Sequence record: MW822011
Reading direction: 5' to 3' (one strand)
From: Shigella phage TB004
DNA: 64,000 bases
The notes under the pieces are model-generated. The model saw only the letters and a program-made list of their open reading frames with translations. It was not told where the DNA came from and did not search any database. Numbering within the stretch: position 1 is the first letter of the stretch; every line of letters begins with the position of its first letter. Shown piece after piece: positions 4,587 to 33,568 of this stretch. A program made the position numbers and the translations under genes.

Positions 4587-5902
4587 CATTTGATGATTTG
4601 ACCGAAGGCCAGAAAAATGCCTTTAACATCGTTATGAGGGCTATTAAAGAAAAGAAACATCATGTAACTATTAATGGACCTGCTGGTACTGGTAAAACTA
4701 CTCTTACTAAGTTCATCATTGAAGCCTTAATATCTACGGGCGAAACTGGCATTATTTTAGCAGCTCCTACTCATGCAGCTAAAAAGATTCTTTCAAAACT
4801 GTCAGGGAAAGAAGCGAGTACTATTCACAGTATTCTTAAAATTAACCCAGTAACATACGAAGAAAACGTTCTTTTTGAACAAAAAGAAGTACCGGATTTA
4901 GCTAAATGCAGAGTATTAATCTGCGACGAAGTGTCAATGTATGATAGAAAGCTATTTAAAATTCTGCTTTCAACTATCCCGCCGTGGTGTACTATAATTG
5001 GAATAGGCGATAATAAGCAAATTAGACCTGTTGACCCAGGAGAAAATACTGCTTATATCAGTCCATTCTTTACGCATAAAGATTTTTATCAGTGTGAACT
5101 CACTGAAGTTAAACGCAGTAATGCTCCTATTATTGATGTAGCTACTGATGTTCGTAGCGGTAAGTGGATTTATAATAAAATTGTTGACGGACATGGAGTA
5201 CGTGGATTTACTGGTGATACTGCTTTACGCGATTTTATGGTAAATTATTTTTCAATCGTAAAATCACTAGATGATTTGTTTGAAAATCGTGTAATGGCAT
5301 TTACGAATAAATCTGTTGATAAGTTAAATAGCATTATTCGTAAAAAGATTTTTGAAACTGATAAAGATTTTATTGTCGGTGAAATTATTGTAATGCAGGA
5401 ACCATTAATTAAAACATATAAAATTGATGGAAAGCCTGTGTCAGAAATTATTTTTAATAACGGACAATTAGTTCGTATCATAGAAGCAGAGTATACATCA
5501 ACATTTGTTAAAGCTCGTGGTGTTTCTGGAGAATATCTAATTCGTCATTGGGATTTAACAGTAGAAACTTACGGCGATGATGAATATTATCGTGAAAAGA
5601 TTAAAATAATTTCATCTGATGAAGAGCTGTATAAGTTTAACTTATTTTTAGGTAAAACGGCAGAAACTTATAAAAATTGGAATAAAGGTGGAAAAGCCCC
5701 GTGGAGTGATTTTTGGGATGCTAAATCACAGTTTAGTAAAGTGAAAGCACTTCCTGCATCAACATTCCATAAAGCTCAGGGCATGTCTGTAGATCGTGCT
5801 TTCATTTATACACCTTGTATTCATTATGCAGATGCTGAATTAGCTCAGCAGCTTCTTTATGTTGGTGTCACTCGTGGTCGTTATGATGTATTTTATGTAT
5901 GA
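4583..5902 (+). CDS. dda: Dda DNA helicase (439 aa)
   Basis: Walker A GPAGTGKT, SF1 helicase motifs; length equals T4 Dda. Confidence 0.95.
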   Translation: MTFDDLTEGQKNAFNIVMRAIKEKKHHVTINGPAGTGKTTLTKFIIEALISTGETGIILAAPTHAAKKILSKLSGKEASTIHSILKINPVTYEENVLFEQKEVPDLAKCRVLICDEVSMYDRKLFKILLSTIPPWCTIIGIGDNKQIRPVDPGENTAYISPFFTHKDFYQCELTEVKRSNAPIIDVATDVRSGKWIYNKIVDGHGVRGFTGDTALRDFMVNYFSIVKSLDDLFENRVMAFTNKSVDKLNSIIRKKIFETDKDFIVGEIIVMQEPLIKTYKIDGKPVSEIIFNNGQLVRIIEAEYTSTFVKARGVSGEYLIRHWDLTVETYGDDEYYREKIKIISSDEELYKFNLFLGKTAETYKNWNKGGKAPWSDFWDAKSQFSKVKALPASTFHKAQGMSVDRAFIYTPCIHYADAELAQQLLYVGVTRGRYDVFYV

Positions 5903-5923
5903 TTAAATTTGAGGAAGCTATTC

Positions 5924-6169
5924 GTGGAAATAACTAAAGATCAGTTTTATCTTCTTCAAGATAAAGTAAGCGAAATTTATGAAATAGCTTATAGCAAAAA
6001 TCGCAAAAATGTGAAAACTGAATCAGGCAAGTTAATGCTTCAATTGGAAGAAATTGAACGAGATTTGATTGCGTTAGAATTCTTTTGTGGTGAAGTAAAA
6101 ACTGTTACAATCAGTGATTATGTTTTAGGTGAAATTAGCTATCTTTATAAGGCGGTTATTAATGATTGA
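5924..6169 (+). CDS. hypothetical protein at the dexA.2 position (GTG start)
   Basis: ORF track frame 5909..6169; GTG at 5924 after gaggaag SD; paralog of the next ORF. Confidence 0.45.
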   Translation: MEITKDQFYLLQDKVSEIYEIAYSKNRKNVKTESGKLMLQLEEIERDLIALEFFCGEVKTVTISDYVLGEISYLYKAVIND

Positions 6170-6404
6170 ATTAAGTTGGTGGCAGTTTAAATCTCTTATG
6201 ACAAATGTTAAAGATGTCATTGAAGAAAATCCAGGTCCTGAAAATATTACTATTCGCGAAAAAGCTTCAAAGATAGTATACAGTCTTGAAGAGATACAAA
6301 AAGACATTGAATCTGTGGCAAAATTTATTGATGAGCCCATTAATAAAGTTTATATTCAAGACTATACTGTAGGTCAAATTCGCGATTTAGCAAGGAAAAT
6401 TTAA
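6162..6404 (+). CDS. hypothetical protein at the dexA.1 position (80 aa)
   Basis: ATG at 6162 overlapping upstream stop; similar to previous ORF (LEEIxxDl ... yvxDYtvGqI). Confidence 0.45.
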   Translation: MIELSWWQFKSLMTNVKDVIEENPGPENITIREKASKIVYSLEEIQKDIESVAKFIDEPINKVYIQDYTVGQIRDLARKI

Positions 6405-7087
6405 TGTTTGATTTTATTATAGATTTTGAAACAATGGGAAGCGGTGAAAAGGCAGCTGTTATTGATTTGGCTGTTATTGCCTTTGACCCTAATCCAGAAG
6501 TCGTTGAAACATTCGATGAATTAGTTTCACGCGGCATTAAAATCAAATTTGATTTAAAAAGCCAAAAAGGACATCGTCTTTTTACTAAAAGCACTATTGA
6601 ATGGTGGAAGAACCAATCTCCTGAAGCTCGAAAAAATATTGCACCATCAGATGAAGATGTGAGCACTATCGATGGTATTGCAAAATTTAATGATTACATC
6701 AATGCACACAATATCGATCCTTGGAAATCTCAAGGTTGGTGCCGTGGAATGTCGTTTGATTTTCCAATTTTAGTCGATCTCATTCGTGATATTCAACGCC
6801 TTAATGGTGTATCTGAGAATGAGCTTGACACATTTAAGTTAGAACCATGTAAATTCTGGAATCAGCGTGATATTCGTACCAGAATTGAAGCACTTCTACT
6901 TGTTCGTGATATGACAACGTGTCCCCTTCCAAAGGGAACTTTAGATGGATTTGTTGCGCATAATTCTATTCATGACTGTGCGAAAGACATCCTGATGATG
7001 AAGTATGCTTTGCGATATGCTATGGGTCTTGAAGATGCTCCATCAGAGGAAGAGTGCGATCCTCTGTCTCTTCCAACAAAACGATAA
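6404..7087 (+). CDS. dexA: exonuclease A, DexA (227 aa)
   Basis: N-terminus MFDFIIDFETMG; length equals T4 DexA; DEDD-type exonuclease. Confidence 0.9.
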   Translation: MFDFIIDFETMGSGEKAAVIDLAVIAFDPNPEVVETFDELVSRGIKIKFDLKSQKGHRLFTKSTIEWWKNQSPEARKNIAPSDEDVSTIDGIAKFNDYINAHNIDPWKSQGWCRGMSFDFPILVDLIRDIQRLNGVSENELDTFKLEPCKFWNQRDIRTRIEALLLVRDMTTCPLPKGTLDGFVAHNSIHDCAKDILMMKYALRYAMGLEDAPSEEECDPLSLPTKR

Positions 7088-22524: not shown

Positions 22525-23181
22525 TTATTTAGCCCTTCCTAATATTCTGGCCGCCTGAGAACATATTGATTCAAGGCGGTCATTACTTATATGATCATTT
22601 CTATACCAGTACATGGTTATTGTTCCAGCATAGATGTTATCCAAATTAAAATATGGACAACTGTACATGTAATTTATTTCGGGAGTAGGCTTTTTAGTTG
22701 GTAAAAAAGCAAATTTTGAGTTGGAATAATAATGACGTCCATTTAAATGAACTGTATATTCATCCATAGTTTTATCAACAGGATATCCTCCAAGTGATTT
22801 TTCACTTATTGTTGAAGGTAATTTTCCTTCATATGCTATAATATCAACAAAATAGTTTAAGTTTTTAGGGCGGAAAGAATACACCGCACTAAAGTCTGCC
22901 TCAGATGATATGTGAACTATCTGGAGTTGTTCCAGGGCGACAGATTCAAAGCGTGCATTTCTTTCCTTTTCAATAATTTCACTGTATGTTTCATACTTTG
23001 ATTGCTTATAGTACTCAAAGAAACTATCTCCCCTATACCAAACAATCGCCATTATAAACAAAAGAATTACGACAGCTACTCGGGAAGCAAGAACCTTCCC
23101 GGTAGCATTATCTTTGAACAAGCGATCTAGAACACCCAACAGAATATCAGAGGGCGAAAATGATATTCTAGGTGCTGCCAT
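22525..23181 (-). CDS. t: holin T (218 aa)
   Basis: length equals T4 holin; N-terminal TMD and large periplasmic domain; adjacent to gene 38. Confidence 0.9.
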   Translation of the reverse strand: MAAPRISFSPSDILLGVLDRLFKDNATGKVLASRVAVVILLFIMAIVWYRGDSFFEYYKQSKYETYSEIIEKERNARFESVALEQLQIVHISSEADFSAVYSFRPKNLNYFVDIIAYEGKLPSTISEKSLGGYPVDKTMDEYTVHLNGRHYYSNSKFAFLPTKKPTPEINYMYSCPYFNLDNIYAGTITMYWYRNDHISNDRLESICSQAARILGRAK

Positions 23182-23199
23182 AGACCCTCCTTTTAAGGA

Positions 23200-23207
23200 T
23201 ATTTATT
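23200..23207 (-). promoter_or_regulatory. possible late promoter for t (AATAAATA on the coding strand)
   Basis: near match to late consensus TATAAATA. Confidence 0.3.
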
Positions 23208-23211
23208 CAAA

Positions 23212-24003
23212 TTATACTCTTGCACCATATATTGTACCAACTTTAGTCCAAGTTGGAGCATTACCAGTAACAGCTTTACCCGCAGCACCACCCGAGTGAA
23301 CAGTTCCTCCAGTACCACCTTGAATATGTGAAGATTTGCCAGCAGCTCCCAAATCTCCACCATTTCCTCCATAGTGAACCCCAGAAACAGTACCTTTACC
23401 AGGAGCAGAAATTGTACCAGCAGATGCTGCCGCGGCACCGCCTCCAGCTTTACCTGCTGCACCAAATGGACGACCTCCGCCACCTCCAAATATCATATCC
23501 ATTTGAGGGAAAGGATGGTATCTAGCACCAGCGCCGCCGCCACCACCACCACCGATAATACCATTATTGTTTATTCTTAAACGAGTTCCAATTCCGTTAT
23601 TTATTGCAGTTCCTCCTGCTCCACCAGCAGAGTTACTTCCGCCATTTCCTCCTCGACCTAATACATGAACCCCGCTATTAATATTTAAGGTAACGTATGC
23701 ATTAGTTAATGAGCTAGGAAAATCTAAGCATGGAACACCAGTAGATTGAGAAACAATATTTCCTGTAATAGTAACAACAACAGGAGTACTACCTTGAGAT
23801 TTGAGATAATTTATTAGCGTGTCTTTATTATAAGAATTGCTAGCACCAATACTGTAATATACTTCTTTAGATTGTCCAGCCATTGAGCTCATCCAACCGG
23901 GAACTGAAACACGAACTGCTTTCATTGCAGCATCCATCCAGCGTTGTCCAGTTTCATTCACGGCAGATTCACCAATCCAGCCAGGAACACCTACAATTGC
24001 CAT
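23212..24003 (-). CDS. 38: gp38 receptor-recognising adhesin, T2 type (263 aa)
   Basis: N-terminus MAIVGVPGWIGESAV; multiple polyglycine motifs separated by variable segments; immediately downstream of gene 37. Confidence 0.85.
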   Translation of the reverse strand: MAIVGVPGWIGESAVNETGQRWMDAAMKAVRVSVPGWMSSMAGQSKEVYYSIGASNSYNKDTLINYLKSQGSTPVVVTITGNIVSQSTGVPCLDFPSSLTNAYVTLNINSGVHVLGRGGNGGSNSAGGAGGTAINNGIGTRLRINNNGIIGGGGGGGAGARYHPFPQMDMIFGGGGGRPFGAAGKAGGGAAAASAGTISAPGKGTVSGVHYGGNGGDLGAAGKSSHIQGGTGGTVHSGGAAGKAVTGNAPTWTKVGTIYGARV

Positions 24004-24014
24004 TAAAAATCCTT

Positions 24015-24032
24015 AGAGGGCCGAAGCCCTCT
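24015..24032 (-). other. UUCG-tetraloop hairpin in the 37-38 intercistronic region
   Basis: mRNA sense AGAGGGCUUCGGCCCUCU followed by aaggauuuuuaAUG. Confidence 0.5.
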
Positions 24033-24033
24033 T

Positions 24034-27000
24034 TTACATAAGTTTAGATTCAAGTTCTTTTACACGAGCAGAAAGTGTTTTCACAGCTTCAACCAGAAGA
24101 GCAATCTGGGCTTGAGAAGAAACAGTGAGTATTTTATTACCCTTACTGTCTTCTGTTTCACGGACAGCTTCTGGTAAAACGTCTTGCAACGTTTGAGCCA
24201 CAATACCCGCTTCAGTTTCAATTGCCTCTCCACCGATGTATTCAGCTTTATCGTAAATGACACCGTTAAGTTTTTCAACTTTATCAAGTGCGTTTTCGAT
24301 AGGTTTAAAGTTGGATTTTAAACGAATATCAGAACGAATATAAACGTTTGGAGCATTTATATTTTTGTATGAGTACAAATCACCGTTTTGGAAACGGAAT
24401 ACTTGTGCGCTGTTCGCATATATGTCTAATAATCCATCGCCATTTTGCTTAATACCAGTATCATTATCACCAAATGTTATACTGTTTCCACCAAGAGAGT
24501 TTGATGTGTTAATACCAAATGAATTTATTTGAGTAACACCACCCACAGTAGCATTATTTACTACAAAGCGGTTAGCTCCACCTGGAGTCTTTTCAAAGTA
24601 AGCAATATAGTTAGTTTCATCTGCAATTTCAATGCGGTTACCGCGAGAAGCATCGCCAGCATGAAATATTCTCATATTTCTCGGGTTAGCACCTGATTTA
24701 TCAAAGTTAATAGAACCGTTATCTTTGACGTTTATGCTATTATAGAATAAAGCAGCGCTGCGAACAGCTATGCCATTATTCATCATCACTTCGCCGGTTG
24801 TTAAGTTAATTGCAAAAGGACGCTTACTATTCCAATCACCATTAACAGTTGCTGCGCCATCGGTGGCATTTTTATCTGTAAACAGAATATAAAAACTGCC
24901 GCCATCATTTCGTAGCATTGTAGCAACAGAACCAGTTTTATCGCCATTGCTTCTGATACGAATACCGGTTTGGCTATTAATAGCTATTTCAGAATCGGCT
25001 TCATAACGCTTAACTTTACCACGATCAACCAAGTTATTAAGAACATTAGCAACTTGACCGTTAACTGCTGTATCTGGGAGAGCATCTACAGGCGACTGCG
25101 TAGATGAGTTAATACCAATAACGCTAACAGTAGCATTTTCGGTACATGACCATTCACAAACTAGTTGATTACAATATGTTCCAGCATAAACATAAATGTC
25201 ATATGTATTTCCAGAGACATTGTTAACTGCAATATTTCTAAATGCTGCGCTATACATTCCAGTTGTTCTTGTGTATAATACAGCATTTAAGTCAGAAGGT
25301 CTTTCATTACTAGTACGTAAAACAATTTCAGCAATATTACATTGGGTGAATAATCCGCTATTAAATCCAGAACCTCCAACTATTTTAAAGAAGACTGTTG
25401 AAGTGGATTGTGGCATTGTTACTGTTGCAAACTTATACCATCCAGCAGTTGCTCCATAAGTAATAAATCCAGAATTAACTTTACGATTTAACGTGGTATT
25501 TAAGTTGGCAAAGTTTCCTGAACCATTGGTAATATTACCGTCAGTTCTTAGTTGGGCATTTCCGACTTTAAGAGGCTTAGTAATATCGACAGAATCAGAG
25601 TTTAATGCAATACCGTGGGAATAGGTATAGTTATGTAAACGAACAACGTTACCACCGTCACCAATACCCAAATACCATTTAGGCACATCAGCCTTACGTC
25701 CTTGGATAAAGTTAGACGCTGCTTGAGAAGAAGCATTCAAAACAATACCGTCGGAATCCATGTTAACACGAAAACGAACATCAGTTTGTACTAATTTAGA
25801 AACGTTATCAACCGTGAAAAGGTTTTTACCCGCTTGAGCATGGTTACCCATTACAACGGAGCCAGTTCCAAGGTTAATACTGAATGGTCTTATATCGGTT
25901 ATTCCACCGCTTTCGCCTTGGTTAATGGGTGTAGGAATTATATACAAGGAATCTTCTGAACGACGGAAAATAGCACCGTATTTAGCGTTCCAAATACGGA
26001 AGTTATCTGCGGTGCCACCGACCTTTAATTCGCCGTTTACTGACATGCCATTATTAACACTCAAAGAAGATTCGGTTGTAATAGAACCAGAAGCAACAAT
26101 ACTGCCTGAAGTCAATAAACCACCATTAACTCGGAGTTGAATAGGGCCGACAGTCGAACCAGGTGCAGGAGCTACGCGTTGAGAATAAAAATGGTAACCT
26201 TGCCCATCAGCTACTTCAAAAACGGTTTCACGATTACGATCACCAGATGCGTTAAATGCATTACCCCATGCTTTAACAGTTACATAACTCTTATTCTGAC
26301 CTGGGCGGGTACCGCCTTCCCACACTATAGATTTAGTGCCGTCAATACCTGAAGCTGCTTTAAAAACTAGAGAAGCATTAGTTCCATCACCATTAAAATA
26401 TAATCCATTATTAAGTTTTAATGTTTGAACAGAAGCGATTGTACCGTCGGCTCGTAAAGATAATGTGTTTGAGCCAGTTTTAATGTCTAAAATACCTGGC
26501 TCAACAATTAAACCTTCTGCCATACTAACTGACATACGGCCCCGGCCACGGAAATAGTGATACATTTTAGAATTACTGTTATAACCGATATGAGTTTGAC
26601 CATCGCCGTTATTATTACCATCAATATCGGTGCGTGCAGTAAACATTGCTTGGTTGTTATTTGGGAAATCCCAAGTAGAACCGGAATCTCGACTATAACC
26701 AACCATCAATTTTTTAGTACTATTAATACCATTATTCAAAATGGTAGCGGTTGAAATACCGTTAGCCATTAAGTCAATAACGCCATCGCGGACCCATTTA
26801 ATACCGGTATCGTTATCGCCAATCGCAATACCAATAGAAATTGCAGAATCAAGTGGATAACGGCCATTTGTACCACTATCAGGAAGACCTACTGAAATAG
26901 ATTTACCTGCGGTAATACGTCCAGTGGTATCAAATGCCCACTGGAAAGACGAAGGTCCTACGCCGGTCCACCAAGAAATTTCTTGTGGTTTTCCCGAACG

Positions 27001-27798
27001 ACAATCAACAATTTCATGGAAAATACTTGATGCACTTGATGCACGTAATTTACGCAAATAGTTCAATCCATTTGTAGTATTGTCGGAACCATCTGCCGGT
27101 GGGTTATAAACCCAGGTAGGTAAAGAAACAATGTCATAACCCGTGTCATTATTCGGTATAAAGGTTTTAGAACTCAGGTTAATATTTTTTGTATTGACGC
27201 GCGGTGCAGAAACAAATCCAGTTGCCGAGTTAATATTGCCTGATGCAGAAATATTACCTGCACGGACTTCAATACTGCCATTATCTACAATAAAACTACC
27301 GTTACGATTAAAAGTCCAATATTTTGAATCACCAGATTCATTGATATATTGAATTTTAAAACTACCTTCGTTTACTAACGTACCAACAGAAAAAGTTCCA
27401 TCTTTATAGCGTTGTTTAATTAGCGGATGGTATTCTGAAGTAGAAGTCGTTGAACTCAAATCGGTAAAGATAGGAGCTTTATTTTTATGTTGGTTTGCCC
27501 AAGCACCATTACCAGCAGTTTTAGGTAAAAATTCAATATATTTTCCTGCATAAACAAACTGGTTTCCATTAAGATTATATGTTCCATTTTGTAAATAATC
27601 ACCAGTTTGAGTGATATTACCACTGATATTACCGCCAGCGGAAATGCTTAAGTCAATGATATTTCCCGAATCATCTTTAGTAAAAAGTGTTCTATCTTTT
27701 AAGTTTATAGCCAATTCACCTTCGGCTAATACTGAAGCAGCAGGACGTGCACCTGCGGTTTTGCTTCTTTTAAATTGTATTTGTTTTAAAGTAGCCAT
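24034..27798 (-). CDS. 37: long tail fibre distal subunit gp37 (1254 aa) with C-terminal intramolecular chaperone/autoprotease domain
   Basis: size and position in the 34-35-36-37-38 operon; C-terminal SDIRLKSNF ... motif. Confidence 0.9.
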   Translation of the reverse strand: MATLKQIQFKRSKTAGARPAASVLAEGELAINLKDRTLFTKDDSGNIIDLSISAGGNISGNITQTGDYLQNGTYNLNGNQFVYAGKYIEFLPKTAGNGAWANQHKNKAPIFTDLSSTTSTSEYHPLIKQRYKDGTFSVGTLVNEGSFKIQYINESGDSKYWTFNRNGSFIVDNGSIEVRAGNISASGNINSATGFVSAPRVNTKNINLSSKTFIPNNDTGYDIVSLPTWVYNPPADGSDNTTNGLNYLRKLRASSASSIFHEIVDCRSGKPQEISWWTGVGPSSFQWAFDTTGRITAGKSISVGLPDSGTNGRYPLDSAISIGIAIGDNDTGIKWVRDGVIDLMANGISTATILNNGINSTKKLMVGYSRDSGSTWDFPNNNQAMFTARTDIDGNNNGDGQTHIGYNSNSKMYHYFRGRGRMSVSMAEGLIVEPGILDIKTGSNTLSLRADGTIASVQTLKLNNGLYFNGDGTNASLVFKAASGIDGTKSIVWEGGTRPGQNKSYVTVKAWGNAFNASGDRNRETVFEVADGQGYHFYSQRVAPAPGSTVGPIQLRVNGGLLTSGSIVASGSITTESSLSVNNGMSVNGELKVGGTADNFRIWNAKYGAIFRRSEDSLYIIPTPINQGESGGITDIRPFSINLGTGSVVMGNHAQAGKNLFTVDNVSKLVQTDVRFRVNMDSDGIVLNASSQAASNFIQGRKADVPKWYLGIGDGGNVVRLHNYTYSHGIALNSDSVDITKPLKVGNAQLRTDGNITNGSGNFANLNTTLNRKVNSGFITYGATAGWYKFATVTMPQSTSTVFFKIVGGSGFNSGLFTQCNIAEIVLRTSNERPSDLNAVLYTRTTGMYSAAFRNIAVNNVSGNTYDIYVYAGTYCNQLVCEWSCTENATVSVIGINSSTQSPVDALPDTAVNGQVANVLNNLVDRGKVKRYEADSEIAINSQTGIRIRSNGDKTGSVATMLRNDGGSFYILFTDKNATDGAATVNGDWNSKRPFAINLTTGEVMMNNGIAVRSAALFYNSINVKDNGSINFDKSGANPRNMRIFHAGDASRGNRIEIADETNYIAYFEKTPGGANRFVVNNATVGGVTQINSFGINTSNSLGGNSITFGDNDTGIKQNGDGLLDIYANSAQVFRFQNGDLYSYKNINAPNVYIRSDIRLKSNFKPIENALDKVEKLNGVIYDKAEYIGGEAIETEAGIVAQTLQDVLPEAVRETEDSKGNKILTVSSQAQIALLVEAVKTLSARVKELESKLM

Positions 27799-27806
27799 AA
27801 GTCCTC

Positions 27807-28466
27807 TTAATAATAGCCGAAATCTTGAACAGAATCCTTAATTACGATTTGGTCAAATCGCGGAACGTGTGAAGGTTGAGATGCAGGATTCTGCGAGAAA
27901 AAGTTTGGTGCGGTTAAGTTACCCGTCATAGTATCGCCAGATCGTAACACTCTAGAGTTCGCATTTGCCGTAACAGTATTTATTGCTCCATCAACATAGT
28001 CCTTTCTAGTAAGGTCATTTGCGGCAATGGGCGCTGCGGCTTCGGCTCGCACCTGACGCTGTGAATTTATATTACCACGGGCCGAAATTTCACCGTCACG
28101 AACGTTAAAAACAATTGTCCTAGGTCCTGTTCCTTGAGATGATTTAAATCCGATACCATACCAAGATATTATATCAAGGTTAACATTATCATAAGTTGCT
28201 CCATCACCTGGCCCAACAAACATCCCGGTCAGACCATTGCCAGCTCCCGGGACTTGAATACCCTGGTTAAAGGTAACTCGGTTTAGATAAATACCGCCAT
28301 TAGCTTTAGAAACGAAATCGTTATCTGCAGCTTGTGGTTTATTATATTCTGAATATATTTTAAATGATTTATAGAGTACATCGTCACCGGCTGGATTCAA
28401 TGGAAAATTTCCTTGATGCCAAATGACAGAGCCTCCAGTTGTTGAACCTACTTTTAAATCAGCCAT
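27807..28466 (-). CDS. 36: long tail fibre hinge connector gp36 (219 aa)
   Basis: size and position. Confidence 0.85.
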   Translation of the reverse strand: MADLKVGSTTGGSVIWHQGNFPLNPAGDDVLYKSFKIYSEYNKPQAADNDFVSKANGGIYLNRVTFNQGIQVPGAGNGLTGMFVGPGDGATYDNVNLDIISWYGIGFKSSQGTGPRTIVFNVRDGEISARGNINSQRQVRAEAAAPIAANDLTRKDYVDGAINTVTANANSRVLRSGDTMTGNLTAPNFFSQNPASQPSHVPRFDQIVIKDSVQDFGYY

Positions 28467-28489: not shown

Positions 28490-28497
28490 TATTTATA
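28490..28497 (-). promoter_or_regulatory. late promoter (TATAAATA) for gene 36
   Basis: tatttata on + strand, about 25 nt upstream of gp36 start. Confidence 0.55.
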
Positions 28498-28529: not shown

Positions 28530-29645
28530 TTAAACTTCTCTAAATTCTTGTCCAAACACTTTACCAGTTTTAGACGATGCTTGCGTAGGAAGTACCATTA
28601 TATCCGGAGGTGAAGCAGATTCACAGACATAATTAACTCGAATACCGTTGACGCCAAATTCAGCAGGTTTCGAAATTCCGCCATTTCTTGACACTTCAGA
28701 AAAGCTTAAATTTCTCATGCCACCTTGACCAGCTTGTGCAGTTCTTTGTGCATATATCGTAAATCCCACAGCGTTTTCTGGAACAACTACATAATCTTCT
28801 TTTAATTCCCAAGACCCAGCTTGCCCGGTAAACTCAGCTTGTGTTGAAGAAATATATCCGTTAGATGCATTATAAAAACGGATAGATATATTTGTAGTTC
28901 CAAGAGCAAGTAAATCGGCATCAGCATATAACTGAGCTTTAAGATAAAGAACATCACCAGGAATTAAATTATAATCAGAGAGTTTACTTATAGCAGCTGA
29001 AGTTGGCAATCGCGCAATTTCGTTATTAGTTCCACCGACTGCTGACATAAATTGCTCAATGCTTTCGTATGTTCTTTTAGGAAATCCCGTAGCTCCAACA
29101 TCTTCTAAACTGTCAAATACAACATCTAAAATAGTTTGATAGTCGTCTGTGCTTTTTCTATTACTTAATTTAACATGCTCTAATGCAATAGCTCTTTTAG
29201 AAGAAGTGTAAAAAGCAGCATATGATACGTCAAATCTTGACAATATAGAATCAGATGGAAAAGCAGACGTTCCTGCGGTTCTTAGCCAAGATACTACTTC
29301 AGGAGGAAAATTAACCTTTCCGCTAGTTAATATAGCAACAAGTCTATTATTCGCCAAAGAATTCATGAAACTAACAAAAGCAGCTGATGTAGTATCATTT
29401 GAAGTAGAAAAAGCATATGACTTACTATCAACTAATGCTCCGGTGGAAGGGTCAAAAACTCTTAGATGAAGACCTGCGCTAAATGTTTGACTTCCAACAG
29501 GATTATCTTGAAATTTAACGTATGGTCCTGCAGTAGAAAGCGGGCAAGAACCCGCTATACTTATTTTATATCTTACTGAATTACTTTCCGATAAAAATGG
29601 CGTTTGGACATATCCTTGTCCAAACTCTGCCATAAATTTTTCCAT
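28530..29645 (-). CDS. 35: long tail fibre hinge protein gp35 (371 aa)
   Basis: size and position. Confidence 0.85.
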   Translation of the reverse strand: MEKFMAEFGQGYVQTPFLSESNSVRYKISIAGSCPLSTAGPYVKFQDNPVGSQTFSAGLHLRVFDPSTGALVDSKSYAFSTSNDTTSAAFVSFMNSLANNRLVAILTSGKVNFPPEVVSWLRTAGTSAFPSDSILSRFDVSYAAFYTSSKRAIALEHVKLSNRKSTDDYQTILDVVFDSLEDVGATGFPKRTYESIEQFMSAVGGTNNEIARLPTSAAISKLSDYNLIPGDVLYLKAQLYADADLLALGTTNISIRFYNASNGYISSTQAEFTGQAGSWELKEDYVVVPENAVGFTIYAQRTAQAGQGGMRNLSFSEVSRNGGISKPAEFGVNGIRVNYVCESASPPDIMVLPTQASSKTGKVFGQEFREV

Positions 29646-29653
29646 AATACCTC

Positions 29654-32600
29654 TTATTCAATCCATTCAAATTTAACAGATTTATTCACTGGGTCAGGAA
29701 TAATGCGAACATTACCAATTCGTAAGAAATCACGAATAGTAAGATTCCCCATTGTAGCATTATCAGATGGTAAAGCACCGATATCAGATGGTTGAGGAGG
29801 GTTACCTCCGTCAAATACCTGAACAAAACTTGACCAAGAGTTTTTGGTTTTCTGCCATGTACGTGTCCAGCGAGTGGTACGTGCTTCTGGAGTCGTTGGA
29901 TAAGTAATCCAATCTTGGTAAAGCGAATCAAGTGTGTTACCAAACTGAGTCAATGTACCAGGAGATTTAACTTCTTCGCCACGTTCTAAGTATGGAAGTC
30001 CAGTCACTTCATTAGTTTTTTCAACCATTTTAAAATAACCTGGGAACTGGTTATAAGTAGCTGAATCATTAATATCGATTGACCAGAATCCTACAGTATC
30101 AGATGTTGGCGCACGGGTATATAAGTCAGATGTTTTAGTGCCCTGAGAACGAATTCTCGAGTTAACAGTTAAACCACCTGAATTTATAGTAGCACCTTTG
30201 GCAATGATTAAGCTTTCACCAATCGTTACTTGACCGGACTGATTGTTAATAGCTAAAGGACGTAATCCATTAAATCCGCCAGTCTGATCACCTGATGTAG
30301 TAAGCATAAAATAGACATTAGCACCATCATTACGAATAAAGAATCCGTAATTACCACTAATAGCTCTAAAAGCATTCGATGATTTGCTGATGAATTCACC
30401 ATTAGCAGTAACTGAACGACCGAATGTTGCAACGCCATTAACATTCATCAAACCGGAAGCATTAATGTTTATTGGCATTACAGTACCATTAATGCTAAAC
30501 GCTATATTCCCGTCTTCTTTATTACGTTGAGAATAAAAGTGATAAGATGTATCATCACCAACTTCAAACACTGTCGAACGGGTCGTATCACTACCGCCGC
30601 CAAATTGGTTACCCCATACACGGATGCTCATTGACTGAACCGGGTTTGCACCGGATGCAGGACCTTTTTCGAAAACGATACGGGTCGGAGTTCCAGTATT
30701 AGAAATAGTTAATGTACTATTTGCCGAAACTGAACCACCAAACGTAGCAGTACTAGATGATACAAGAGGGGCACTCAGATTCGTTTGTTGGGTTAAGGTT
30801 AGTGAACCATTAACCGTCTGTGCAATGTCCCTACGAATGAACTGGGATGAATCTAGACCATCCAATAAATTTGTATCAGCAGCTTTTGCTTTTAATGGCA
30901 AATAATTTGCTAATACACGGTTTAATTCATATGGTGATACTGCATAACTATTTTTTTCGTATAATTCTAATGACTGGGTTGAACCAACGGTATCATTACC
31001 GACGAATGTAATTGAACCAGATGAAGTTTTAACAAATCCTCTTATCGCAGTAGTAGCTGCCCAAGTAGGTTCACTCTGCACAATCCATTTTAAATTTTTT
31101 GGAGATACAGCAGTATTTGCTGACGTTCCAGTTACAGTTTCAGACTGAGTTGCAACTTTAATAACACCTTCCTGTGCTTCAGTAGATTTAGTACCTAAAA
31201 GCTTTTTAGGAGTTATTAAAACATTATCTAATGTTCCTGCAGCAGCTTCAACTTGCGTAGCTACACGAAGTGTACCACGCTGTTTCTCATTTGCTTCAAG
31301 AATATTAAGGGTATAATGGTCCCAGAGAGTTCCTGATTCAACTAATCCAGATAGAGCAACAACAGAAGTACGATCAGTACTATTAAATCTAGTTTTAATT
31401 TTTAATGGTGTAGAGATACGAGTATCGTCGACGCCTGCGTCGAATTCAACTTGTGTAGCAATTTCAGCTATACCACTTAAACTTTCAGTTGCTCTACGGT
31501 CATTTAAAGTTTTAGGAGTGACTGCACGAGTATAATCAGTTCCTGTATTAACTTCACTTTGCGTAGCAATTTCAATTAAACCAATTCTTCCATCAGTTGA
31601 TGTCTTTTTATGTAACGTTTCTGGCGTTACAACAGCATTTGCCCATCCTTCTTGACTTTTTCCAGCAATTACTTCACTTTCAACTGCTAAAATTACTGCA
31701 CCTTGTTGTGTTGGAGTAGCTTTATACTGATCCAGAGCTTTAGGTGAAACAACTAAATTATTAGTGTTTTTATTATAAACGTTTGTACCATTTAATTCAC
31801 GACTAGAAGCTGGAGTAGCTCCTGCAGTAGATACAAATGTTACAATACCAGATAATGATTCAGAACCTTGTCGAGCTTGAAGCTTTTTAGGAGTGATGAT
31901 TGTAGTATCATCAGTACCTGCATTAGTTTCCTGTTGCGTAGCAATTTCAGCAACACCTCTACGAGTTTCTGTAGCAGTTCTTTCATTCAGCTTTTTAGGA
32001 GTGATGATAATATCATCAGCAAAAGAGAATGTGGTGTTCTGATTCACTTGAGCAGTAGTTGCTATTCTTGCGATACCTCTACGAGTTTCTGTAGCAGTAC
32101 GGTTAGCTAATGTTTCTGGAGTAATTGCTAATTCTTTTTGTGGAGAATTTTCTAAATCGACATTAGCTTGAGCTTGTGTAGCTAAAGCAATTACACCTAA
32201 TCTTGCTCTAGTAGAATCATTTAAAGAATCAACTCTTTCTACGGTTGGAACGTTTTGCTGTACAACCCAATATTTTCCATCAGAATCTTCTATGTAAGCA
32301 AGCTCCAAAACTGGAACATAATTAGTTTCACCGTTAAAAACTAATTCTTGAACAGTCACCCATTTAGTTTCAGGCGGATACTCTGAACGTTTTGGGAATT
32401 GCAGCAATTGAACTGAAGAAGCAATTTTATCTTCACCGGCAGCTTTGATTTTAACTGTTTGTCCTTTTCTCATGTAATTCATGGAAATTTTAACAGTATC
32501 ACCAACAGAAATATTAGTTGGAAGCTTAAGCTCAATTGTCTGAGCTGTTCCGTTATTCGCACCAAATACCATAACTTCTTCATTTGGACGAATATTAGAA

Positions 32601-33526
32601 TTAGTCGTTATAATGCGTAAACGCGCTTTACTATCCCCGTCAAACAATCTCCACAATTTCTCATTATCATCAAACATCAAGAAACCGTCAATCGTTGTAC
32701 GGCCTTCAATGGAATGAGTTCCAACTTCTTGTATTGAAGTCGTTTCATCGTATGTAGTAACAATTGTATGATAAAGCGGATTTAGTTTATCTAAATCGAC
32801 GAAATTAATAATATCGCCATGATTAGCAAATCTTGGAAGTTTAACATTAATTGGTGCAGCAGAAGTAAATCTACGTACGATAAAATCGTTGGATTGCGCT
32901 TGATAAGTATTCGCTGGTGTTACAACTACAGCTTCTCTGCTATAATCAGCTACATACATTTGCCACAGACGATTACTAAAAATTAAAACTAGCTGTGACT
33001 TTGGATGAGTCATTAGTACTGAACGTACTTGCTCGCCTCTGAAGTTTACAATACTTTGCACCGGAGCTACAATTAAAACTTGGTTAACTCCAGGTTTTCC
33101 TCCAATATCTTGGAGAACGATAGTATCACCATCAATTGGAGTAGATGGTAAAGTAAATGTAATATCATTACCAGCTGCAGTGTTAACCGAAATAGCTTCA
33201 CCGGATTTTAATTGATATGAACCAGATGAAACTGTAATCCAGTTAGCATCAGTACGTAATGCTCTCCAGCGTCCGCTATTAAAAGCTCCTGCCGGTTTTG
33301 GAATATCATTTATAGCAGCCCAAAAGCGGTTATCATAAATGATTACAAAATCTTTTAAATATCCACGAGTTGGATCATATTGTTGAACTGTGTTTTCTTG
33401 AATTAGATAATCAACGTTAACACCGTCAGTTCCTACGGTACGATCAGCTAAAGCTACGTTGATTATTTTATCGCCACCTGCGTCCAGACCATCTTCTGCT
33501 CTGAACTTTCTTTTAATCTCGGCCAT
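29654..33526 (-). CDS. 34: long tail fibre proximal subunit gp34 (1290 aa)
   Basis: size equals T4 gp34; internal tail-fibre repeats (ATETRRGxA ... TPKKL). Confidence 0.9.
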   Translation of the reverse strand: MAEIKRKFRAEDGLDAGGDKIINVALADRTVGTDGVNVDYLIQENTVQQYDPTRGYLKDFVIIYDNRFWAAINDIPKPAGAFNSGRWRALRTDANWITVSSGSYQLKSGEAISVNTAAGNDITFTLPSTPIDGDTIVLQDIGGKPGVNQVLIVAPVQSIVNFRGEQVRSVLMTHPKSQLVLIFSNRLWQMYVADYSREAVVVTPANTYQAQSNDFIVRRFTSAAPINVKLPRFANHGDIINFVDLDKLNPLYHTIVTTYDETTSIQEVGTHSIEGRTTIDGFLMFDDNEKLWRLFDGDSKARLRIITTNSNIRPNEEVMVFGANNGTAQTIELKLPTNISVGDTVKISMNYMRKGQTVKIKAAGEDKIASSVQLLQFPKRSEYPPETKWVTVQELVFNGETNYVPVLELAYIEDSDGKYWVVQQNVPTVERVDSLNDSTRARLGVIALATQAQANVDLENSPQKELAITPETLANRTATETRRGIARIATTAQVNQNTTFSFADDIIITPKKLNERTATETRRGVAEIATQQETNAGTDDTTIITPKKLQARQGSESLSGIVTFVSTAGATPASSRELNGTNVYNKNTNNLVVSPKALDQYKATPTQQGAVILAVESEVIAGKSQEGWANAVVTPETLHKKTSTDGRIGLIEIATQSEVNTGTDYTRAVTPKTLNDRRATESLSGIAEIATQVEFDAGVDDTRISTPLKIKTRFNSTDRTSVVALSGLVESGTLWDHYTLNILEANEKQRGTLRVATQVEAAAGTLDNVLITPKKLLGTKSTEAQEGVIKVATQSETVTGTSANTAVSPKNLKWIVQSEPTWAATTAIRGFVKTSSGSITFVGNDTVGSTQSLELYEKNSYAVSPYELNRVLANYLPLKAKAADTNLLDGLDSSQFIRRDIAQTVNGSLTLTQQTNLSAPLVSSSTATFGGSVSANSTLTISNTGTPTRIVFEKGPASGANPVQSMSIRVWGNQFGGGSDTTRSTVFEVGDDTSYHFYSQRNKEDGNIAFSINGTVMPININASGLMNVNGVATFGRSVTANGEFISKSSNAFRAISGNYGFFIRNDGANVYFMLTTSGDQTGGFNGLRPLAINNQSGQVTIGESLIIAKGATINSGGLTVNSRIRSQGTKTSDLYTRAPTSDTVGFWSIDINDSATYNQFPGYFKMVEKTNEVTGLPYLERGEEVKSPGTLTQFGNTLDSLYQDWITYPTTPEARTTRWTRTWQKTKNSWSSFVQVFDGGNPPQPSDIGALPSDNATMGNLTIRDFLRIGNVRIIPDPVNKSVKFEWIE

Positions 33527-33560: not shown

Positions 33561-33568
33561 TATTTATA
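33561..33568 (-). promoter_or_regulatory. late promoter (TATAAATA) for gene 34
   Basis: tatttata on + strand about 35 nt upstream of gp34 start. Confidence 0.55.

Follow-up and report, generated by a model that had tools for sequence, protein, structure and literature searches.

Knowledge of long tail fibre adhesins of the gp38 class goes back to the 1980s, and two of them have been solved structurally, the one from phage S16 in 2018 and the one from phage PP01 in 2026. In S16, T2, and T6, gp38 is part of the virion, with one copy per gp37 trimer, and is needed for adsorption (PMC6851490; Trojet et al. 2011). The N-terminal helices of S16 gp38 carry three Trp residues at their apices, and these insert into hydrophobic pockets of the gp37 trimer (PMC6851490). 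In the crystal structure of PP01 gp38, five loops, named A to E, are the receptor-recognition loops, and Gly208 in loop D and Tyr230 in loop E cross-link to OmpC (PMC12892980). The receptor can be predicted from gp38 phylogeny (PMC12032242), and modular shuffling of the gp38 locus has already been described (Trojet et al. 2011). Among phages with adhesins very close to the one considered here, KIT06 is unable to infect a tsx deletion mutant (PMC11274021), AV114 and AV115 depend on Tsx (PMC10844046), and Bas43 TadeuszReichstein has Tsx as its primary receptor and the LPS deep core as its terminal receptor (PMC8594841, supplement).

The locus lies in 64,000 nucleotides of DNA from Shigella phage TB004 (MW822011); this whole stretch is called the window below. 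An earlier reading of the letters, here the original prediction, had claimed a 263-aa open reading frame at positions 23212-24003 and assigned it to a T2-type gp38 adhesin. The frame is present from ATG to TAA. Its strand, absent from the claim, is the minus strand, and the plus-strand translation of 23212-24003 has many stops.

23212..24003, minus strand: gene 38 (g38), receptor-recognising adhesin, 263 aa; ATG at 24003-24001 and TAA at 23214-23212, from the ORF list.

Proteins of this family are well characterised, and the product itself is already known: its exact 263-aa sequence is deposited and correctly named, as NCBI QTZ59846.1 ("receptor recognizing protein", Shigella phage TB004). Clustering at 90% identity places it among 81 members, with slur07 as the representative, and a database search finds hundreds of full-length homologues. 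A literature search on phage TB004 itself gave nothing relevant. The labels on near-identical homologues are varied and include "receptor recognizing protein", "tail fiber adhesin", "distal long tail fiber assembly catalyst" (the RB18 label), "tail assembly protein" (the label in AV109, AV114, and AV115), and "hypothetical protein".

Pfam GP38 (PF05268) matches residues 47-263 (1e-68, 231.9 bits) and Pfam Gp38_N (PF21721) matches residues 1-42 (7e-18, 64.7 bits), both passing the curated cut-off, which is 25 bits for each. PHROG 2056, described as "tail fiber protein; host specificity", matches at 1e-100; NCBIfam had no match for gp38 or gp37 and was uninformative. Among PDB sequences, the matches are S16 6F45_D (3e-49) and the PP01 receptor-binding domain 9V85 (4e-32). 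An AlphaFold2 model built with 74 homologues reached a pLDDT of 92.8 and a pTM of 0.87. When it was compared with the PDB by Foldseek, 6f45_D (TM 0.78/0.83) and 9v85 (TM 0.71/0.83) were returned, 0.83 being the target-normalised value, and the next match beyond these two had E>1. The modelled fold combines a helical attachment domain, a beta-helix, and a putative polyglycine-II sandwich. Placement in the adhesin family, and not with the T4 chaperone, was part of the original prediction and is borne out by Pfam GP38 and Gp38_N, by PHROG 2056, and by Foldseek, which found S16 and PP01 only. The adhesins of S16 (6F45) and PP01 (9V85) share the same predicted three-domain fold, the glycine framework, and the five loop positions with gp38 here. 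Their identity to it is 42% and 38%, respectively, over the Foldseek alignments, but their loops are unrelated (13-14% pooled identity), and both bind OmpC. The three parts of the protein map to the DNA as follows.

23866..24003, minus strand: N-terminal three-helix attachment domain, residues 1-46, with Trp9, Trp22, and Trp37 (Gp38_N and model).
23662..23865, minus strand: first part of the central beta-helix, residues 47-114 (model; Foldseek to 6f45_D and 9v85).
23215..23661, minus strand: predicted glycine-rich specificity domain (polyglycine-II sandwich and remaining beta-helix rungs), residues 115-263, 34% Gly (S16/PP01 alignment).

In the model, helices span residues 10-18, 23-29, and 38-41, each directly preceded by a Trp (W9, W22, and W37), and these three residues align with the Trp residues of S16 gp38. 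Across the 74-sequence alignment, Trp9 is kept in 71 sequences, Trp22 in 70, and Trp37 in 42. The figure for Trp37 corresponds to only 57% (77% aromatic), with alignment offsets as a possible cause; Trp37 is found here and in all 15 panel sequences (see below). Residues 1-46 are 95.7% identical to T2. Beta-strands follow in the model at residues 48-115, with pLDDT 96-97.

The glycine motifs that had been claimed were all found: GGGGGGGAG at residues 151-159, GGGGG at 173-177, and GGNGG at both 118-122 and 212-216. Glycine accounts for 23.2% of the whole protein, 33.6% of residues 115-263, and 9.6% of residues 1-114. By comparison, the other window ORFs of at least 180 aa have a median glycine content of 5.9% and no Gly run longer than 2, and the glycine motifs of gp38 are far beyond chance composition. 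The glycine-rich half of g38 (23215-23661) also stands out in G+C, at 48.8%; the window as a whole has 35.6% and the first 114 codons have 38.6%. The glycine codons of g38 are GGT (31), GGA (20), GGC (8), and GGG (2), and the high-G+C island is an effect of such GGN codons, not a sign of foreign origin.

Variability along gp38 was measured as column entropy over the 74-sequence alignment. Conserved glycine-rich blocks (residues 116-123, 127-159, 173-183, 213-221, and 238-247) alternate with variable segments (124-126, 160-172, 184-194, 204-212, and 222-237), as had been proposed from the single sequence. The proposal that these segments set host range also gains support, in that they coincide with receptor-recognition loops A to E of the PP01 crystal structure.

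23626..23640, minus strand: loop A, residues 122-126, GSNSA; entropy peak at 124-126, aligns to PP01 loop A.
23488..23526, minus strand: loop B (HVS2), residues 160-172, ARYHPFPQMDMIF; entropy 2.87 bits, the highest, aligns to PP01 loop B.
23422..23454, minus strand: loop C, residues 184-194, GKAGGGAAAAS; entropy 2.23, aligns to PP01 loop C.
23368..23394, minus strand: loop D, residues 204-212, GTVSGVHYG; entropy 2.40, the main indel hotspot.
23293..23340, minus strand: loop E (HVS4), residues 222-237, GKSSHIQGGTGGTVHS; entropy 2.12.

For the receptor, we relied on a receptor-labelled panel of 16 adhesins, with identity pooled over the five loops. The closest loops are those of KIT06 (98%), AV114 (96%), and Bas43 (94%), all of which use Tsx; RB18, which is without a receptor label, stands at 91%. 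Pooled identity is 37-39% to the T6-type Tsx binders (T6, Bas35, Bas36, Bas37, and Bas39), 22-28% to OmpA binders (Bas45 and M1), and 9-14% to OmpF, FadL, and OmpC binders (Bas38, T2, PP01, and S16). Alignment to receptor-labelled gp38 adhesins, the check attached to the original prediction, places the loops in the KIT06/AV114/Bas43 Tsx subtype, at 94-98%. Tsx is the predicted receptor of gp38 here because of this near-identity to experimentally characterised adhesins, and not because of a resemblance to T6. The term "T2-type" consequently stands in part: it holds for the class and for the N-terminal half (96% identity to T2 over residues 1-46), but it is wrong for the specificity loops, since these are of the Tsx-using subtype of KIT06, AV114, and Bas43 and not the FadL-type loops of T2.

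T6 gp38 is 55% identical overall and uses Tsx, the receptor predicted here, but the T6 gp37 tip is unrelated, and the attachment domain of T6, Bas35, Bas36, and Bas37 is a different one (63-65% over residues 1-46). The T6-type loop B shares Y-x-P-F-[PS]-Q-M-x-x-x-F with gp38 here, with partial similarity in loops A and D. The T6-type set of hypervariable segments for Tsx (Trojet et al. 2011) is not found in this protein, with identities to T6 of 54% in loop B, 18% in loop C, and 25% in loop E. With loop B as the only clear overlap with T6 and no relation in loops C and E, this is a second Tsx-using loop set. In the panel of 16 sequences, Y-x-P-F-[PS]-Q-M in loop B occurs in Tsx binders only. 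The shorter string PFPQM was considered as a universal Tsx marker and rejected; Bas35, Bas36, Bas37, and Bas39, all Tsx users, carry PFSQM.

The alignment to T2 gp38 (FadL/OmpF-type, a different receptor) stops at residue 147 in BLASTP, and the T2 loops are only 14% identical. Judged by sequence, T2 and gp38 here share the attachment module only. A recent T2 x T6 chimera, which the amino acid alignment had suggested, was rejected at the nucleotide level, where no 20-codon window is more than 78% identical to T6 and only the first ~48 codons are highly similar to T2 (89-98%). Bas39, a Tsx user with T6-type loops, shares the N-terminal half of gp38 here at 98%. Bas39 and Bas45 (OmpA) together share its N-terminal 114 residues at 88-98% and carry other C-terminal specificity domains; their gp38 proteins are clear module swaps at the first glycine-rich motif.

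The closest known adhesin is that of KIT06 (WCS66656.1), which is 99.6% identical in amino acids and 98.7% in nucleotides and lies in the same gene order. It differs in having Tyr at residue 226, and its gp37 partner, at 1303 aa, is 49 codons longer. Elsewhere, KIT06 and the window are 96-99% identical in nucleotides, in contrast to 80% in g36 and 63% in the last 900 nt of g37 (window 24034-24933, KIT06 5071-5970). BLAST identity resumes at window position 24518, which points to recombination with a breakpoint in the 3' portion of g37. The gp38 proteins of AV114/AV115, Bas43, and RB18 fall in the same 90% cluster, with 95-97% amino acid identity and loops at 91-96%; AV109 and AV114 are both 96.6% identical to gp38 here, and Bas43 is at about 96%. 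AV114, Bas43, and RB18 have 9-11 substitutions each, mostly in residues 48-77 together with K185A, H226Y, and A261S. AV114 belongs to another genus, Mosigvirus, and its backbone genes (g35, t, asiA, motA, and gp52) are only 63-78% identical in nucleotides. When AV114 5071-6792 was set against window 23212-24933, the last 900 nt of g37 were 91% and g38 94% identical. This high identity amid a divergent backbone suggests that the fibre-tip cassette has been exchanged between genera.

One residue sets gp38 here apart from all of these. His226 (codon 23326-23328), in the first part of loop E, is private to this protein among the relatives inspected; the residue is Tyr in KIT06, AV114, RB18, Bas43, and all 10 other cluster members inspected. 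His and Tyr codons are one C/T transition apart. The best-surviving alternative accepts the protein as an adhesin and proposes that His226, or a different gp37 context, shifts or broadens the receptor, which would not be Tsx alone; candidates would be a different porin, or Tsx in combination with BtuB or LPS. Besides the privacy of His226, the loop-E equivalent contacts the receptor in PP01, a Shigella host is suggested by the source name, and KIT06 plated weakly on a btuB-defective strain too (PMC11274021). In addition, PST is reported to differ from T6 in a small number of HVS2/HVS3 residues and to have acquired recognition of OmpA (Trojet et al. 2011), and phage Ox2 host-range variants with altered gp38 change their receptor specificity (PMC12892980, introduction). 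However, the remaining 262 residues are identical to those of the Tsx-dependent KIT06 adhesin, the replacement of Tyr by His is moderately conservative and keeps an aromatic residue, and loop E already varies among Tsx users; it evidently tolerates some variation, since Bas43 has Q228K yet uses Tsx. We consider a shifted or broadened receptor improbable. It is likewise doubtful that the Tyr226-to-His change acts on host range by altering or broadening receptor use compared with the Tsx-dependent KIT06 adhesin. If it were true, His226 could reflect adaptation to the Shigella surface or to a Tsx variant.

The preferred reading, a Tsx-type adhesin, also requires a suitable partner at the fibre tip, and the genes around g38 supply one.

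29654-33526, minus strand: g34.
28530-29645, minus strand: g35.
27807-28466, minus strand: g36, with its ATG at 28466.
24034..27798, minus strand: g37, long tail fibre distal subunit, 1254 aa (Pfam gp37_trimer, Gp34_trimer, and Peptidase_S74).
24037..24333, minus strand: C-terminal intramolecular chaperone domain of gp37, residues 1156-1254 (Peptidase_S74 at 1156-1213).
22525..23181, minus strand: gene t (holin), directly downstream of g38 (Pfam Phage_holin_T, 8e-118).

The gene order is g36-g37-g38-t and includes the canonical g37-g38-t. Residues 1100-1252 of gp37 match the S16 gp37 tip, 6F45_A (E=2e-11). An SDxRxK motif (SDIRLK) stands at Ser1156 and marks off a 99-aa fragment like those of T2, RB18, AV114, and KIT06; by inference from the family, gp37 is predicted to be auto-cleaved before Ser1156. 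In comparison with T2, the final 60 residues of the mature form that this predicts are 93% identical and the chaperone domain is 100% identical. We class gp37 here, from its sequence, with the T2/S16 kind and not the T4 kind. Because the gp37 tip and chaperone and the gp38 attachment domain are all T2-like, both sides of the gp37-gp38 interface were apparently inherited together.

Signals in the flanking DNA can be related to expression of these genes.

24015..24032, minus strand: AGAGGGC-UUCG-GCCCUCU hairpin in the 30-nt g37-g38 spacer (-13.4 kcal/mol, z = -2.07).
28490..28497, minus strand: TATAAATA, a late-promoter motif by position, ~20 nt upstream of g36.

After the spacer hairpin, a Shine-Dalgarno sequence, AAGGA (24010-24014), lies 6 nt before the g38 ATG, and there is a short U run as well. 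The hairpin may make the g37 message more stable or reduce read-through into g38, and the latter would fit a 3:1 stoichiometry of gp37 to gp38. Transcription of g36-g37-g38 likely begins at the TATAAATA copy upstream of g36. Across the window the motif shows no enrichment, with 7 copies found and 9.5 expected; since its count is not above chance, the promoter assignment rests on position and knowledge of T4. Another exact TATAAATA is located at 33561-33568 on the minus strand, just upstream of g34, and a one-mismatch copy, AATAAATA, at 23200-23207 between g38 and t, upstream of the ribosome-binding site of the holin gene. Scans for tRNAs and Rfam families, run over the whole window, found none.

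A second alternative would make the protein a T4-type gp38, a tail-fibre assembly chaperone that stays outside the virion. It draws on the legacy database labels of close homologues only, and these assembly labels are transfers from the unrelated T4 gp38. The T4 protein, with 183 aa against 263 aa here, resembles gp38 in name and in position between g37 and t only; it has a different function and, according to a note in the T4 record, is not a virion component. In BLASTP, T4 gp38 is reached at E=12, so that the outcome named in advance as fatal to the adhesin assignment, a best similarity to the 183-aa protein, did not materialise. Moreover, gp38 has no tail-fibre-assembly or other further Pfam family at E<=0.01, its fold is that of the S16 and PP01 adhesins, and gp37 has an intramolecular chaperone domain of its own. 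We regard a T4-type chaperone as extremely improbable.

The last alternative, that the glycine runs are low-complexity or spurious and the real gene is one of several 52-98 aa ORFs that overlap g38 in other frames and on the plus strand, has next to no chance in view of the synonymous excess in the g38 frame, its hundreds of full-length homologues, the high-confidence fold, and the AAGGA before the ATG.

23193-23489, minus strand: ORF overlapping g38, one of five of 52-98 aa.
23328-23525, plus strand: overlapping ORF.
23374-23580, plus strand: overlapping ORF.
23883-24041, plus strand: overlapping ORF.
23114-23299, plus strand: overlapping ORF.

Codon differences between g38 and its AV114 counterpart are 37 synonymous and 9 non-synonymous, and those from KIT06 are 9 and 1, respectively. 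Because substitutions relative to close relatives are overwhelmingly synonymous, the g38 frame is under purifying selection. The same pattern in the g38 frame dismisses the five overlapping ORFs, which are most likely artefacts of a GGN-rich coding sequence.

We conclude that positions 23212-24003 are very probably the g38 of a Tequatrovirus (T-even) phage, encoding a monomeric adhesin that caps the trimeric gp37 tip, with Tsx as its predicted receptor. The gene, its family and fold, the loop and motif architecture, the features of gp37, and the near-identity to the adhesins of Tsx-dependent phages are directly supported, and on these a mechanism can be proposed. The gp37 chains would trimerise through their own C-terminal chaperone domain (1156-1254), which would then be removed by auto-cleavage before Ser1156. 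One gp38 would dock on the exposed tip of the trimer, in a 3:1 arrangement, through its three-helix domain and Trp9, Trp22, and Trp37. The beta-helix and the polyglycine-II sandwich formed by the conserved glycine motifs would hold the five variable loops distally, where they would bind the extracellular loops of an outer-membrane beta-barrel. For this exact sequence, we infer that the barrel is the nucleoside channel Tsx and that the loops contact it. Reversible binding by several fibres would then allow the baseplate to extend the short tail fibres to the LPS core, and this would trigger sheath contraction.

In scientific content there is nothing new here, as the receptor of this allele cluster has already been mapped in three independent studies. 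The value of the analysis lies in annotation and phage therapy. For these purposes, the confident label is long tail fibre adhesin gp38, Tsx-type, and not "assembly catalyst", and loss of tsx is predicted to be the main host route to resistance.
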